The position numbers and the translations under genes are program-made. Under the pieces are notes generated by a model. It was not told the DNA's origin and made no database searches. It worked only from the letters and a program-made list of their open reading frames with translations. 64,000 bases of DNA, taken from a virus. Where the stretch lies: the IMG/VR virus record IMGVR_UViG_3300029305_006397, one strand, 5' to 3'. Positions 23,986-49,958 of this stretch are shown here, piece by piece; position 1 is the first letter of the stretch; every line of letters begins with the position of its first letter.

Positions 23986-24624
23986 TTAAACCTCATTCAA
24001 TTCCTTGTACCTTTCCAACAGCGCAGCCATTTCAGGATTCTTATCTGCAATTGCCTGGTAAAGAATAAGTTCCTGATTATCCTTCACCATCTTGTCCATT
24101 TGCTTTTTCAGTGCTTCCTTGGCCTTACGCTGTTCCCGGCGTCTATGATAGGCTTCGAAATCGACCTTACAGACGACTTCTTTTACAGGCATAGTCCAGC
24201 CACTTTCACGGGCTTCATCCTGTGTAGCAAGACCTGAGACCCTACAAACCTGGAATCCACTAGCTGAATCAACAAGCACATAATCATTTACTTTTACCAG
24301 ATGTTCAGGATCGAAAAGTGCAAAATAATAATCCTTCACCGGGTTTGTACCATCAACAAAACGGCAAGCTGCCACCATATAATTTCCAGAAACTGCCATA
24401 TGATTCTTCTCCTTATTCTCTTTTGCTTCTTTTGCAATTTTATATTTGCGACCAACCCATATCAAACTATAGGGACTGTATTCATATGTTCCATAGCCAT
24501 TGTCAAGTTCTACTCTGATACGACTACCATCAAAACAATTTAAAGCTACGATCACGCCATATCTGCCATTGGTATAAGCTTTAGGCGATTGAATTTTCAC
24601 CCGGTCTCCAATAGAAAATTTCAC
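23986..24624 (-). CDS. hypothetical protein
   Basis: start placed at GTG 24624 just after upstream stop. Confidence 0.5.
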   Translation of the reverse strand: MKFSIGDRVKIQSPKAYTNGRYGVIVALNCFDGSRIRVELDNGYGTYEYSPYSLIWVGRKYKIAKEAKENKEKNHMAVSGNYMVAACRFVDGTNPVKDYYFALFDPEHLVKVNDYVLVDSASGFQVCRVSGLATQDEARESGWTMPVKEVVCKVDFEAYHRRREQRKAKEALKKQMDKMVKDNQELILYQAIADKNPEMAALLERYKELNEV

Positions 24625-24625
24625 A

Positions 24626-25117
24626 TTAATCACCAGCCTGATTCTTAGCCGATGCGCCTTTGAGCTTTTTAACAACGGGCTTATGTCGCAAAAGCTTTTC
24701 GTCATCCGAAGTAAACACCTTAGTTACGGTAACGACAGATGTATTGGAACCATCCTTGCATTTGGATTTGACCTGTACAATATCTCCAACTTCAATAGAC
24801 ATGCGCTTTGCAACGCGCCAGGTATATTCCTTATCATTTCCTTCAAATTTGCCGCAGATATATACCGAGACTACGTTATCAAGCTGTTTCTGCTGCTCAG
24901 ATACAGAAATATAGGGAATATGATCCATTCCGGCTTCGATAGCTACAAGATAACGAACATAGCCATCGACAAGGACATTATCGGATAGAACTACGGGGCG
25001 ATCCAATTTACCATTTTCTTTGAGGTATGTACGAACGACATCCATTTTGTGAGTACCAGGTTTAGTGTTGCGAAAAGACGACGGTACATAGATATCCTTA
25101 ATGTTGATCTTTTTCAT
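24626..25117 (-). CDS. ParB-like N-terminal domain protein (weak)
   Basis: PVVLSDNVLVDGYVRYLVAIEAGMDHIPY resembles the ParB/Srx fold motif. Confidence 0.35.
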   Translation of the reverse strand: MKKINIKDIYVPSSFRNTKPGTHKMDVVRTYLKENGKLDRPVVLSDNVLVDGYVRYLVAIEAGMDHIPYISVSEQQKQLDNVVSVYICGKFEGNDKEYTWRVAKRMSIEVGDIVQVKSKCKDGSNTSVVTVTKVFTSDDEKLLRHKPVVKKLKGASAKNQAGD

Positions 25118-25146
25118 TATTGTGCCTCCAATTCATATGTCGTGAG

Positions 25147-25587
25147 TTATTCAACAACCAGTTCAAGTTTTGTAAAAGTGGAAAGTTCATCGACAAGATA
25201 GATTTCAAAGCAATCGCAGCCATCCTGAGTGCCAACGTATTTAAAAGCAATATGTGCAATATCCAATGCTTCTTCTACCATATAATCGTAACCATCCTGA
25301 TCGAGAATCCAGAGGGCATCGGTACATTCAGAAAGGCGCAGATTGTAACCGTAGTCAAAACCCAGCAAGTCAAAGCTGCCTCTATTCTTTTCGTAATCAA
25401 GGACTCGAAGTGTTTTGATGGTACGAGATTCTTTAATTTCTGAGCGAATGCGGCGCAACACAAAAATGGGATCATCAAAAGATTGGGAAACCTCGTTAAT
25501 CCATGAATGATCCTGGGTAAATAAAGAACAAGGATTATCGATGATTTGAAGATGAAAAGGATTGGCGACGATGATTTCAGTATTCAT
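25147..25587 (-). CDS. hypothetical protein
   Basis: tiled minus-strand ORF; GGAGAG SD. Confidence 0.6.
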   Translation of the reverse strand: MNTEIIVANPFHLQIIDNPCSLFTQDHSWINEVSQSFDDPIFVLRRIRSEIKESRTIKTLRVLDYEKNRGSFDLLGFDYGYNLRLSECTDALWILDQDGYDYMVEEALDIAHIAFKYVGTQDGCDCFEIYLVDELSTFTKLELVVE

Positions 25588-25626
25588 AAAAATCTCTCCT
25601 TATAAAATAATCTTAAACTGGTATTC

Positions 25627-25655
25627 TTTACAAGGAGTAGAAAATGTGCTATGAT
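25627..25655 (+). promoter_or_regulatory. sigma70-type promoter (TTTACA-17 nt-TATGAT with TG extension)
   Basis: read directly; faces into a gene-free gap. Confidence 0.55.
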
Positions 25656-25660
25656 ATAGA

Positions 25661-25838
25661 CGCATAAAGACCTCCAAGTACGGCATCTTTTCGCATAAAG
25701 ACCTCCTGTACTGAAGCCTTTATGTCCAACAAAGCACACTTAACGAAGCCATCCGGTAAAGACGGCCAATTAAGCTGTTTTGTTGTTGGGGCCACCTTGA
25801 GTTGATCCGCCAAGATTCAGAACTCAAGGTGGTTTTTA
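25661..25838 (+). ncRNA. candidate small RNA, antisense to the leader of 25147..25587
   Basis: promoter at 25627 and intrinsic terminator at 25792-25838 bracket about 175 nt with no convincing ORF; contains two copies of CGCATAAAGACCTCC. Confidence 0.4.
25792..25838 (+). terminator. intrinsic terminator
   Basis: 12-bp stem CCACCTTGAGTT/AACTCAAGGTGG followed by TTTTT. Confidence 0.6.
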
Positions 25839-25948
25839 TGTTCCAGAACGCTTATCGAACAAGCGTTTGGTTGATATTTCTAATGATACCACATAATGTC
25901 ACGTTTTGCAATGGTACTAAATGGGATTTTCAGAACATTCGTTCGATT

Positions 25949-26905
25949 TTACGTTTTGTTCGGGCTAATTGGTACATCAAACATATCTACTCGTCCACGC
26001 ATAGTAACAAGAAAATTCGGAAGCTCAGACTTGTATTTACTTCGTTTCAATTCATTTTGAATAATTTCAAATCCTCGCTTATTTCGGGAGCGCTTTTCAA
26101 ATACCTCAGACATATCAAGTCCTTCCTTATGAAGATTGATCGCAATACGATGCATAATTCCACTTATATAAACATCATACGGGCGAATATCATAATCAAT
26201 ATAGCGTTTTGCAATATTTCTAAACGCAGTTTGATGTTTAACGTGGGCAAACCTCCCGTCAGACGAAGATCGAGCTGCCATCTTGAAACAACTATCTACA
26301 TGTTCGCCTTCCAATGGAGAACGAGAAACCGTTCCGAATCGGTTGGGATGTTCCCAAACACTTATTTTGCTAAGTTCTATGAGATCGTTAGCAAGTTTTG
26401 CAGATATTTCCAAATCGTAGATTTCGCCCTCGTCTGTGTGCAAAGTTACAAAGCCATCATGGATATCTTCACTCTTCAAGTGAACCAACACATCCAAATT
26501 ATCATTATAAATGCCTTCATAAATAGAACGCATCAGACAGGTATAGTACAGCACATTGTATTCTTCTTCAGTTTGAATCCTGGAGCAAAGAGCTTCAAAA
26601 TCTGCATTTGAGATGTATTTCTTTGAATTTTCCTTATACATTTCCCAAAACACGCCTTTATCAAATCTGCGAACAGCGCTAACGATATCTTTTCTGTTTA
26701 TAAAATAAGCATATTTTATAATAATGGTAAGATATTGAGATACAATGCGATCCGATACAGGTTTAGCCTCAATGAGAATATCAGCAATCGACTGCTGTGT
26801 AAAACTTTCAAAATCATATTCTTCCAAAGCGGTAAATGTTTTTGCAGTTCGTTTCAATCCAGAAGATTCGATTGAATCTAAAAACCGGGCATACGTTTCC
26901 TTCAT
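25949..26905 (-). CDS. hypothetical protein in integrase module
   Basis: 318 aa ORF, no firm motif. Confidence 0.55.
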   Translation of the reverse strand: MKETYARFLDSIESSGLKRTAKTFTALEEYDFESFTQQSIADILIEAKPVSDRIVSQYLTIIIKYAYFINRKDIVSAVRRFDKGVFWEMYKENSKKYISNADFEALCSRIQTEEEYNVLYYTCLMRSIYEGIYNDNLDVLVHLKSEDIHDGFVTLHTDEGEIYDLEISAKLANDLIELSKISVWEHPNRFGTVSRSPLEGEHVDSCFKMAARSSSDGRFAHVKHQTAFRNIAKRYIDYDIRPYDVYISGIMHRIAINLHKEGLDMSEVFEKRSRNKRGFEIIQNELKRSKYKSELPNFLVTMRGRVDMFDVPISPNKT

Positions 26906-26992
26906 TATTATTTCCTCTCTTTCTTTTCAATGGGGATTTGATAACTTTCTTTGGGATAATCAAAAATAAGCATTGTTGCTTGTTATACTCGC

Positions 26993-27439
26993 TCAATAAG
27001 GGCCTCGATAAATCTTGCCAGTGAAGTTGCCGTTTTTATCCTGCTCCCATATACAATCATACATACCGATTAAACGATTTCTGTATACCTGGCTGGGTTC
27101 GTTACCTTCGTAAATCTTGTCGTCCTTATATCTGATTTTATCGTATTCATATCGGTTCCAGTCGATGATTTTTGCCACAGGCAGAGGATGTTGTTTAATG
27201 ATTTTGCGATACTTACCATCGCTATACCATTCATTGATCTGGCGTTTCTCGAAATGCTCAATATCCCACTTCCAGCTTTCGATATCGACAACGCCCTGGG
27301 GGATGGGATCTTCAGGAAGATAATAGAGCGTTTTCCTGATCTCGGCGGCACGGGCATTGGTTTCTCTGGTTTTCTTATTCTGCGCAGCGGCAGCTGCGCC
27401 CCAAAGGAAAAGACCTGCGAGAAGTTTAATCATCAACAT
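26993..27439 (-). CDS. secreted or membrane-anchored protein
   Basis: start at MLMIKLLAGLFLWGAAAAAQ (signal-like), AAAGGAG SD. Confidence 0.5.
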   Translation of the reverse strand: MLMIKLLAGLFLWGAAAAAQNKKTRETNARAAEIRKTLYYLPEDPIPQGVVDIESWKWDIEHFEKRQINEWYSDGKYRKIIKQHPLPVAKIIDWNRYEYDKIRYKDDKIYEGNEPSQVYRNRLIGMYDCIWEQDKNGNFTGKIYRGPY

Positions 27440-27449
27440 TCGACTCCTT

Positions 27450-28253
27450 TCAAATATATTCAAGACCAAGTTCCACGCTATTGAAAATGCTTTCTACTTC
27501 GGTATCCATGATGCCAATATACTTTAGTGTAACTTGCGGACTGGAATGACCAAACGCCTGTTGAAGTATAACCAGTGCTTTAGACTTATCTTCTGCGTTG
27601 TGCCATCTCCAATAGCCCCACGTTTTTCTCAGTGAATGCGACCCGATATTTTGTTTGATTCCAGCTTCCGCCGCTGTATCTTTTATAACTCTCCAGAGAT
27701 ATTTAGATTCAATCGGATCGTTTCCCTTTTGAGAAGGAAAAAGGTAATCGTCTAAATTATCTATTGGGTATTCTGAAATGAAATTCATAATTGCAGCCTG
27801 TACAGTTTGATTGAAAAACAGCTTTACAAATTTCTTTTGCTTCTTTTGCTTTTGCGGTTGCAAGGCATAGAATTGTTTAAAAGCAAGGTTTCCGGCATTA
27901 TTTCGTTCGAGAAAGAACGACCAGCGCAAAGTGCGAAGATCGGATGCCCGAACACCAACATTGATTCCGATCAAAAACAGTAGCTTGTTTCGCGAAGCAG
28001 TTTTTTTGCGACATACGCCAGAAGCTGACGTAATATGTTTATCAAATATGGCGATCATCGCCTGAATTTCTTCCTGGGTGCGAAATGCGTACACTTCTGA
28101 AGATTCGCCTGCAATTTTATTATTGCGGCTTTTATTGATCGAACCATCCAGATTGTACTTGACTTTCTTTTTCTGTTTACCGCCCTGCAAAACGCTAAGA
28201 GGAACGATGTTTGAAGTGTCCCGTTCAATCGGGAAAGCGACCACATTATTCAT
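27450..28253 (-). CDS. tyrosine recombinase / integrase
   Basis: R (GVRASDL), HSLRKT, GHSS..TLKYI catalytic-Tyr region; start placed at ATG 28253 overlapping upstream stop. Confidence 0.85.
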   Translation of the reverse strand: MNNVVAFPIERDTSNIVPLSVLQGGKQKKKVKYNLDGSINKSRNNKIAGESSEVYAFRTQEEIQAMIAIFDKHITSASGVCRKKTASRNKLLFLIGINVGVRASDLRTLRWSFFLERNNAGNLAFKQFYALQPQKQKKQKKFVKLFFNQTVQAAIMNFISEYPIDNLDDYLFPSQKGNDPIESKYLWRVIKDTAAEAGIKQNIGSHSLRKTWGYWRWHNAEDKSKALVILQQAFGHSSPQVTLKYIGIMDTEVESIFNSVELGLEYI

Positions 28254-49482: not shown

Positions 49483-49589
49483 TGTAAAATTCCCCTTCCT
49501 ATCTTTCCAAATGATTGACAGGAAGGGGCAAACTATGATATATTTCTGTATAGGAAGGGCGGAAGGAAATTCCCTCCACCCCCATGCGG

Positions 49590-49673
49590 TTAGATTTCGT
49601 CCGGGTTATCCGTGGCGCGAATAATCCCATCAGACCACATCCAGCCGTATTTAGTCCGATACAGGGCTTTCAT
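49590..49673 (-). CDS. possible 27-aa micro-protein
   Basis: own translation MKALYRTKYGWMWSDGIIRATDNPDEI; leader AAAGATAGGAAGGAGG upstream. Confidence 0.3.
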   Translation of the reverse strand: MKALYRTKYGWMWSDGIIRATDNPDEI

Positions 49674-49699
49674 GGCGGTTGTCCTCCTTCCTATCTTTT

Positions 49700-49734
49700 T
49701 ATAAAAAGCGGTCTTGTGTTGGTAGCACAAGGCC
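49700..49734 (-). terminator. possible intrinsic terminator or attenuator
   Basis: GGCCUUGUG-CUACCAA-CACAAGACC then GCUUUUUAU on minus strand. Confidence 0.4.
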
Positions 49735-49958
49735 GTTTTTATCTTTTAAAGCCGTTTTTTCTACGATACGGCAAAACGCTTGACCCATGCTATATGGGAA
49801 TGAATCGGGGTTCAAGGGATTGCCCCGGTCGCCTCCAGCCGTGTTCTTACATGCCGCTGGACACAGGTAGCCTGCATAATCATCTCATTCTCCGGCTACA
49901 GAGTTTTGCGCGGTTTCGATAGACGCACATTTATTGGCGGTTGCTATCGGGAATGGTT

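Follow-up and report, generated by a model that had tools for sequence, protein, structure and literature searches.

An uncultured phage carries, in a 360-nt gap (25588-25948) between two minus-strand genes, the signals for a plus-strand RNA of approximately 177 nt that lies opposite two identical ribosome sites. We tentatively propose, on the basis of these signals and of predicted RNA folds, that this RNA would act as a cis-antisense RNA, blocking the translation of two leader micro-ORFs and hence of the 146-aa gene that would be coupled to them. The transcription unit itself is likely to be real, and the arrangement resembles in its logic the CopA/tap/repA system of plasmid R1.

Genomic context of the gap

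The phage is represented by a complete IMG/VR record of 146,162 bp with direct terminal repeats. All positions refer to the window, i.e., the whole stretch of 64,000 nucleotides that was analyzed, which is in the reverse strand orientation relative to the record. From approximately 22 kb to 53 kb of the window every gene is located on the minus strand, and the gap is part of this leftward block. The gene upstream of the gap (25949-26905, minus strand) encodes a protein of 318 aa, for which PHROG gave a weak integrase-like match (E 2.5e-4). The gene downstream of it (25147-25587, minus strand), presumed to be the regulated one, encodes an acidic orphan protein of 146 aa and has a coding score of 0.237. 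Neither a proximal promoter for the 146-aa gene nor a convincing minus-strand terminator after the 318-aa gene was found, and the mRNA of the 146-aa gene must therefore cross the gap.

Two additional reading frames were considered and rejected. The plus-strand ORF 25802-26611 (ATG at 25838, with AAGGTGG-N5-ATG inside the terminator described below) could have been a gene behind an attenuator. Its codon score is non-coding (-0.10), compared to +0.19 for the 318-aa gene that it overlaps, a value like that of other genes of the phage, and it is therefore regarded as a shadow ORF of the 318-aa gene. A 51-codon frame on the minus strand with a GTG start (25584-25739) crosses both repeat boxes and ends in an ATGA overlapping the start of the 146-aa gene. 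Since it has no Shine-Dalgarno sequence (SD) and a non-coding codon score (-0.07), it is probably no gene.

A known RNA family (riboswitch, ribozyme or known sRNA) was likewise rejected, as no Rfam covariance model matched the gap. A cmscan of positions 24000-28000 with E-values up to 10 gave no match in 25588-25948 on either strand, and a scan of the whole window at the Rfam gathering thresholds, including the ribozyme classes abundant in the phage, gave none in the gap.

A promoter and a terminator bracket a putative antisense RNA

A sigma-70-type promoter is located on the plus strand at 25627-25655. It consists of TTTACA (25627-25632), a 17-nt spacer and TGcTATGAT, with the -10 element at 25650-25655 and a predicted start at approximately 25662. 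The promoter scores 10/12 with an extended -10. Sites with at least 10/12 and the TG were found 11 times in the 146-kb genome when both strands were counted, compared to 4.25 expected (mean of first-order Markov simulations). An intrinsic terminator is located at 25792-25838, with perfect 12-bp arms (25792-25803 and 25821-25832), a 17-nt loop and a TTTTTAT tail. The GC-rich 12-bp stem (-19.8 kcal/mol) followed by TTTTT at 25833-25837 has the form of a Rho-independent terminator on the plus strand only; on the minus-strand side the hairpin is followed by CCCCAACAAC. We counted as terminator-like every hairpin with an energy of -12 kcal/mol or below ahead of a T5 run. By this definition the genome contains 23 such sites, compared to a mean of 8.7 in simulated genomes, and the present one is the strongest hairpin with a T-run in the 64-kb window and the fourth strongest genome-wide. 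A plus-strand promoter (TTTACA-17-TATGAT) and a strong terminator had been named in a preliminary description made from the DNA letters, and both are present where it had placed them, the promoter as one of the 11 such sites in the genome.

The terminator hairpin begins 137 nt downstream of this top-11 promoter, and the two bracket a predicted antisense RNA of approximately 177 nt (25662-25838, plus strand). Its predicted fold has an energy of -58.4 kcal/mol (z -4.35), and an ORF scan found no SD-preceded ORF on it. At the sequence level the unit has the signals expected of a cis-antisense RNA, i.e., its own promoter and terminator opposite a spanning mRNA. We consider this plus-strand transcription unit likely to be real because of the rarity of its promoter and terminator and because the phage holds a second unit of this kind at 49515-49743, to which a terminator match in Clostridium can be added (both are described in the last section).

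Duplicated ribosome sites head two micro-ORFs on the minus strand

The repeat CGCATAAAGACCTCC is present in two copies, at 25661-25675 and 25692-25706, with a spacing of 31 nt. The copies are identical in 15 of 15 positions and have unrelated flanks. When up to one mismatch was allowed, a 13-mer of the repeat was seen twice in the window, both times in the gap, compared to 0.10 expected. Read on the minus strand, both copies give GGAGG-TCTTT-ATG. The copy at 25692-25706 holds SD1 (GGAGG, 25706-25702) and AUG1 (ATG, 25696-25694), while the copy at 25661-25675, which falls at the 5' end of the plus RNA, holds SD2 (GGAGG, 25675-25671) and AUG2 (ATG, 25665-25663).

Micro-ORF 1 (25649-25696, minus strand) starts at AUG1 and has 15 codons followed by TAG, encoding the peptide MRKDAVLGGLYASIS. 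Micro-ORF 2 (25600-25665, minus strand) starts at AUG2 and has 21 codons followed by TAA, encoding MRLYHSTFSTPCKEYQFKIIL. The two lie in different frames. The TAA of micro-ORF 2 (25602-25600) abuts the AAGGAG SD of the 146-aa gene, the stop being located 12 nt before the ATG at 25587. Three claims of the preliminary description are thereby borne out, namely that a 15-nt repeat occurs twice in the gap, that its copies form two perfect SD-ATG starts for micro-ORFs of 15 and 21 codons, and that the second of these ends on the SD of the gene at 25147-25587.

GGAGG-N5-9-ATG precedes an ORF of at least 50 aa in 69 of its 79 occurrences in the genome. Since this combination marks real starts so consistently, two of them side by side are unlikely to be meaningless. 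With the spacing fixed at five nucleotides, 11 of 15 occurrences precede ORFs of at least 50 aa, and two of the four exceptions are micro-ORFs 1 and 2. The similarity between the two 31-nt units is limited to the 15-nt boxes, or to approximately 20 nt if one indel is allowed, and this speaks against their origin by a recent, plain tandem duplication. The peptides have a mean hydropathy of 0.41 (15 codons) and -0.15 (21 codons) and are without a transmembrane stretch. No recognizable feature was found in them, and codon scores are uninformative at such length.

Predicted fold of the leader

A leader starting at approximately 25876 would be about 289 nt long and is predicted to form five hairpins. 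The 5'-proximal hairpin is located at 25843-25872 (minus strand). A long irregular hairpin at 25724-25788 (minus strand) contains 5 G-U pairs and is predicted to have -25.0 kcal/mol on the minus strand vs. -17.0 kcal/mol on the plus strand. An anti-SD box, CAUAAAGGCUUC at 25713-25724 (minus strand), is able to pair with each of the two SD-AUG copies, with which it forms the inverted repeats I7 and I8. The box is predicted to be bistable, with two pairing states of -27.4 and -24.3 kcal/mol, i.e., approximately 3 kcal/mol apart, and in this model it can pair with the local copy 1 first during transcription.

The hairpin at 25596-25637 (minus strand, -11.0 kcal/mol), in which CUCCUU pairs with AAGGAG, is predicted to bury the SD of the 146-aa gene. 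UUUUUAUG comes after this hairpin, which was classed as a weak terminator-like site of the minus strand. The probability of being unpaired is 0.00 for the SD of the 146-aa gene, its partner being the CUCCUU at 25636-25631, and the AUG of the gene is mostly paired too. For SD1 the probability is 0.41 and for AUG1, which lies in a loop, 0.99. SD2 (0.20) and AUG2 (0.03) are mostly paired to the upstream anti-SD box. The predicted accessibility thus decreases stepwise from SD1 to SD2 and to the SD of the 146-aa gene. Translation of micro-ORF 2 would pass through the 5' arm of the hairpin that hides this last SD. A short ORF that opens a hairpin and stops just before the ATG of a gene is the classical geometry of translational coupling.

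The minus-strand fold has -106 kcal/mol and a z-score of -8.9 over 301 nt, and a z-score of -6.7 over the 185 nt shared with the plus RNA, compared to -4.1 and -4.35 for the plus-strand counterparts. For the gap the z-scores are -6.6 (minus) and -3.75 (plus), while four coding controls range from -1.3 to +1.4. G-U pairs number 12 in the minus-strand helices and 6 in those of the plus strand, where the two central hairpins also lose 8-10 kcal/mol of stability. However, since the z-score strand test picked the wrong strand for the known pistol and drum RNAs in the window, which served as positive controls, the stronger minus-strand fold is only suggestive and was not used to call the strand. In coding regions between 22 and 53 kb the minus (sense) strand folds 6-13 kcal/mol per 281 nt better than its complement as a result of base composition, and this bias makes raw energies unusable for strand calling in this genome.

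A candidate sense promoter holds an operator core

A candidate minus-strand promoter is found at 25883-25911 (TTGCAA-17-TGgTATCAT), with a predicted start at approximately 25876. Its score of 9/12 with the TG is at chance level, as 32 such sites were seen in comparison to 29 expected. The spacer contains, at 25899-25890, the operator core ACATTATGTG, which is 10 nt of the repeated 18-nt operator of the phage. The core was found seven times in the window compared to approximately one expected, and six of the seven copies are inside full operators. The copy at 25890-25899 (minus strand) is the sole one in the window outside a full operator; at up to three mismatches no full operator was found in the gap, just the 10-nt core. 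Judged from these signals, the candidate promoter at 25911-25883 is probably repressor-controlled.

The 146-aa protein and the search for homologous loci

The family of the 146-aa protein has five representatives in 1.84 billion proteins. They are 136-183 aa long, and all are from Logan or ENA assemblies. The relatives P0001 (90%), P0002 (52%), and P0005-P0008 were likewise found only in Logan/ENA assemblies, and an identical protein is encoded on 14 contigs. A C-terminal K-x-(E/D)-L-x-V-E motif is conserved in the family. The 146-aa protein gave no Pfam, PHROG, PADLOC, PDB, or fold match. Its AlphaFold model has a pLDDT of 67.7, and nothing above background came out of Foldseek against PDB, VIA-align wide, and ESM Atlas.

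When the 146-aa, 318-aa, and 163-aa proteins and the family members P0005 and P0008 were used as seeds to scan IMG/VR, JGI metagenomes, and GTDB genomes, nothing was returned. Seven relatives bearing RtcB (62-67% identity) have none of the neighboring genes and no gap in common with the phage. Three kinds of sequence match were rejected as homologous loci. The 38 IMG/VR matches to the 15-mer were single chance matches, the sole metagenome match to the doubled box was located inside an unrelated coding GGLYA repeat, and the sole genome match to the hairpin was a bacterial terminator with the stem in common and a different loop.

Proposed mechanism

Our tentative proposal of a cis-antisense RNA builds on the signals, their rarity and the predicted folds, and it presupposes that the phage produces both RNAs, that ribosomes translate the micro-ORFs and that the 146-aa gene is translationally coupled to them. 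The gap would then hold a convergent pair of transcription units. Sense mRNA would enter it from the 318-aa gene, from the promoter at 25911-25883, or from both. The ribosome site of the 146-aa gene would be locked in its hairpin and opened only by ribosomes translating micro-ORF 2. The site of micro-ORF 2 would mostly be paired to the anti-SD box, while the identical and more open copy 31 nt upstream, which heads micro-ORF 1, would compete for the same box.

The plus RNA would be fully complementary to the leader at 25662-25838, with both anti-RBS boxes in its first 46 nt. Pairing of the two RNAs would block ribosome entry at micro-ORFs 1 and 2, the site of the 146-aa gene would stay locked, and the resulting duplex of approximately 177 bp would be open to cutting by RNase III. 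Since the plus RNA would stop at its terminator and leave 38 nt up to the sense start, the sense promoter would not be occluded. Sense transcription would cross the antisense promoter and could sharpen the switch once the sense promoter is de-repressed.

The preliminary description had seen here a cis-antisense RNA controlling leader-peptide translation next to an integrase module. This reading is supported in part. The promoter and terminator statistics and the second unit speak for the plus-strand transcription unit, and control through a leader peptide agrees with the predicted fold, in which micro-ORF 2 passes through the SD-burying hairpin; the link to an integrase module comes down to adjacency. 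Beyond that description, the present model includes the coupling hairpin, the anti-SD box, the sense promoter and the second unit. A fuller version, in which a relay would run from micro-ORF 1 via micro-ORF 2 to the 146-aa gene, gated by the bistable anti-SD box, shut by one antisense RNA with two anti-RBS boxes and placed behind a repressor-controlled promoter, is in our judgment decidedly unlikely. If it were true, an early orphan protein of the phage, which may harm the host when it leaks in lysogeny, would be locked three times over.

Alternative explanations

The gap could hold an element of the sense strand only. In this case a folded leader between the two genes would, without an antisense RNA, adjust the translation of the 146-aa gene or the stability of its mRNA. 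It could take the form of a bistable anti-SD switch acting through a micro-ORF relay, of a weak attenuator hairpin ahead of the ATG or of a processing site, and the promoter and terminator on the plus strand would be by-products of the leader structure. This would agree with the stronger minus-strand fold (z -8.9 and -6.7 vs. -4.1 and -4.35), with the surplus of G-U pairs on that strand (12 vs. 6) and the central hairpins that are 8-10 kcal/mol weaker on the plus strand, and with an A-run before the terminator hairpin, for which the 301-nt fold offers UUUUUAUG, at the start of the gene, as a pairing partner. We nevertheless find it unlikely. The strand z-score test failed on its positive controls, a second promoter-terminator pair is present in the same phage, and a perfect GC-rich 12-bp stem with a T5 run on the plus strand only, 137 nt past a top-11 promoter, is very unlikely to be a by-product. 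The plus RNA might also be real and act otherwise, either in trans through its two CAUAAAGACCUCC boxes or by transcriptional interference between face-to-face promoters, where the terminator would merely shield the sense promoter. Both anti-SD boxes being at the 5' end of the plus RNA, and the terminator stopping 38 nt before the predicted sense start, are compatible with such modes of action. No other site in the genome, however, matches GGAGGTCTTTATG with fewer than two mismatches, which makes the perfect cis target by far the best target, and we regard this explanation as improbable.

It is very doubtful that the gap contains inert remnants, with SD-ATG boxes left from decayed or recombined gene starts and hairpins left from former terminators. 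The region is variable, the RtcB-carrying relatives being without every neighboring gene, and the 146-aa family is tiny, as could be expected for such remnants. On the other hand, the boxes are identical in 15 of 15 positions within unrelated flanks, an exact complementary anti-box exists, the stop of a micro-ORF falls exactly on the next SD and the folding is extreme (z down to -8.9), which adds up to too many coincidences for decay products. A site acting at the DNA level appears most improbable; the repeats would here bind recombinase-like proteins encoded upstream (as arm-type sites or attP) or a ParB-like protein encoded downstream. Copies of the motif at 25661, 25692, 25713 (inverted, 10/12), and 25757 (13/16), in multiples of approximately 31 nt within 110 bp, and the integrase-family genes nearby would suit such a site. 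Yet the motif is an exact SD-spacer-ATG, for which a protein site offers no reason, and no further copies of it are present in the genome. For the hairpin the search found no bacterial genome with contiguous identity, the single match comprising the stem arms and the tail and not the loop.

Comparison with known systems

In plasmid R1 (IncFII), with CopA/CopT-tap-repA, and in the IncI/IncB and IncI2 variants, an antisense RNA is outlined as blocking a leader peptide that is needed to open the ribosome site of the initiator (Blomberg et al., 1992, PMC556743; PMC8053102; PMC5883639; PMC5415839). Leader peptides of this type are given as 24 codons for tap and 19 codons for RepR (PMC8053102; PMC5883639). 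These systems are the closest known ones in logic to the proposed cis-antisense control. As in R1, a cis-antisense RNA from the mRNA leader (constitutive in R1) is predicted to block a short leader peptide, the downstream ribosome site is predicted to be buried in a stem, and the downstream gene to be translated only via coupling to a leader ORF that ends at its start. The stop of micro-ORF 2 abuts the AAGGAG buried in the predicted hairpin at 25637-25596, and the predicted RNA is perfectly complementary to SD2-AUG2 through its nucleotides 1-15 and to SD1-AUG1 through its nucleotides 31-46. On the other hand, the 146-aa protein does not belong to the RepA family (no family match), and neither similarity to CopA/CopT nor an Rfam match was found. 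The locus, as predicted, works like the CopA/tap/repA family but is not a member of it. It is located in a phage and not in a plasmid replicon, and its downstream gene encodes an acidic 146-aa orphan and not a replication initiator. In contrast to R1, there are two identical leader ribosome sites with two micro-ORFs in different frames, one anti-SD box pairs with either copy, the antisense RNA is approximately twice as long, and there is no sequence similarity.

In the type I toxin-antitoxin system hok/mok/sok of plasmid R1 the antisense RNA targets the ribosome site of the overlapping leader frame mok instead of the site of the regulated gene itself. The target mRNA is heavily folded, and long-range pairing hides its start sites. 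For the scheme in general, see PMC5415839. Indirect action through a leader frame and a heavily folded target are likenesses to the proposed control, but here no small hydrophobic toxin ORF is present on either strand, the micro-ORF does not overlap the regulated gene and no processing-dependent activation is evident.

The sar RNA and ant of phage P22 were reportedly described by Liao et al. in 1987. In this system, located in the immI region, the promoter of a small antisense RNA lies inside a gap of co-directional phage genes (PMC5415839). The RNA predicted here, like sar, runs against the transcription of the operon and covers translation-start signals serving the downstream gene. However, sar is approximately 69 nt long and covers the ant ribosome site directly, whereas the present RNA would cover the micro-ORF starts and stop short of the site of the gene itself; moreover, the 146-aa protein has no similarity to antirepressors.

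The par locus of pAD1 (RNA I/RNA II, Fst) has convergent promoters, repeated SD/start-codon boxes as RNA-RNA contacts and a stem that hides an SD (PMC7472228). All three, i.e., convergent promoters, repeated boxes of SD and start codon, and an intramolecular SD-hiding stem, have predicted counterparts in the gap. In par the repeats belong to two separate genes with a common bidirectional terminator between them, and a membrane toxin of 33 aa is produced. In the phage, by contrast, both boxes are in the overlap, the terminator is one-directional and there is no toxin-like ORF. Assignment to a type I toxin-antitoxin system (Fst/par, hok/sok, SPbeta bsrG/SR4) was rejected, as the sole SD-preceded ORFs have 15 and 21 codons and are non-transmembrane. 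A type III system (ToxIN/CptIN/TenpIN), in which tandem RNA repeats, a terminator and the gene of a ToxN/AbiQ-like toxin follow each other on a single strand, was rejected as well. There are just two 15-nt boxes with unrelated spacers, the terminator lies on the other strand, and neither PADLOC nor Pfam gave a match for the 146-aa protein.

As predicted here, the locus belongs to none of the families compared and would be a new and separate case of a control mode that is already known. The general mechanism is a textbook one and a well-known kind of gene control, and the gain is to this extent incremental. To our knowledge, antisense RNAs that act via leader-peptide coupling form a small set, known mainly from enterobacterial plasmids. 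If the plus RNA is real, it would add an example from a Gram-positive-type phage, with the twist that duplicated ribosome sites share one anti-SD box. The 146-aa protein would then be one that the phage keeps silent with unusual care, and its function would merit testing.

A second, similarly built unit and a terminator match in Clostridium

In the leftward block (22-53 kb) the plus strand has four top promoters and three terminator-like sites, one of the latter being the flank of a pistol ribozyme. Two of the four promoters, that of the gap and the one at 49515-49544, have a plus-strand terminator-like site within 200 nt, for which the chance is approximately 0.002 by a rough estimate. A second unit of the same design is located at 49515-49743 (plus strand). 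Its promoter (TTGACA-18-TGaTATATT, 49515-49544) scores 11/12 with the TG, and a hairpin with a T-run (T-run at 49736), which looks bidirectional, follows approximately 190 nt after the promoter. This unit is antisense to a 27-codon ORF on the minus strand (49673-49590; MKALYRTKYGWMWSDGIIRATDNPDEI) with a strong SD (GGAAGGAGG). The 64-kb window contains 22 tRNA genes, an RtcB ligase is also encoded, and three pistol ribozymes, one twister ribozyme, RAGATH-36, and drum were found in the phage. If the plus RNA of the gap is real, it would suggest, together with the unit at 49.5 kb, that several cis-antisense RNAs are also at work in this RNA-rich phage (tRNAs, ribozymes, RAGATH-36, drum).

The single genome match to the terminator hairpin is located at 1764-1804 of the Clostridium sp. 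MAG contig JAAZGI010000491.1 (L048). It has the same 12-bp stem, a near-identical T-tail and a different 17-nt loop, and the chance expectation for such a match of stem and tail in that genome collection is approximately 0.05. The different loop rules out an attachment site as well as a homologous locus. From its sequence the match may be a coincidence or a hint at a clostridial host. The Clostridium terminator is bidirectional and lies between convergent polysaccharide-flippase-like and AMP-ligase-like genes, where a terminator is expected.
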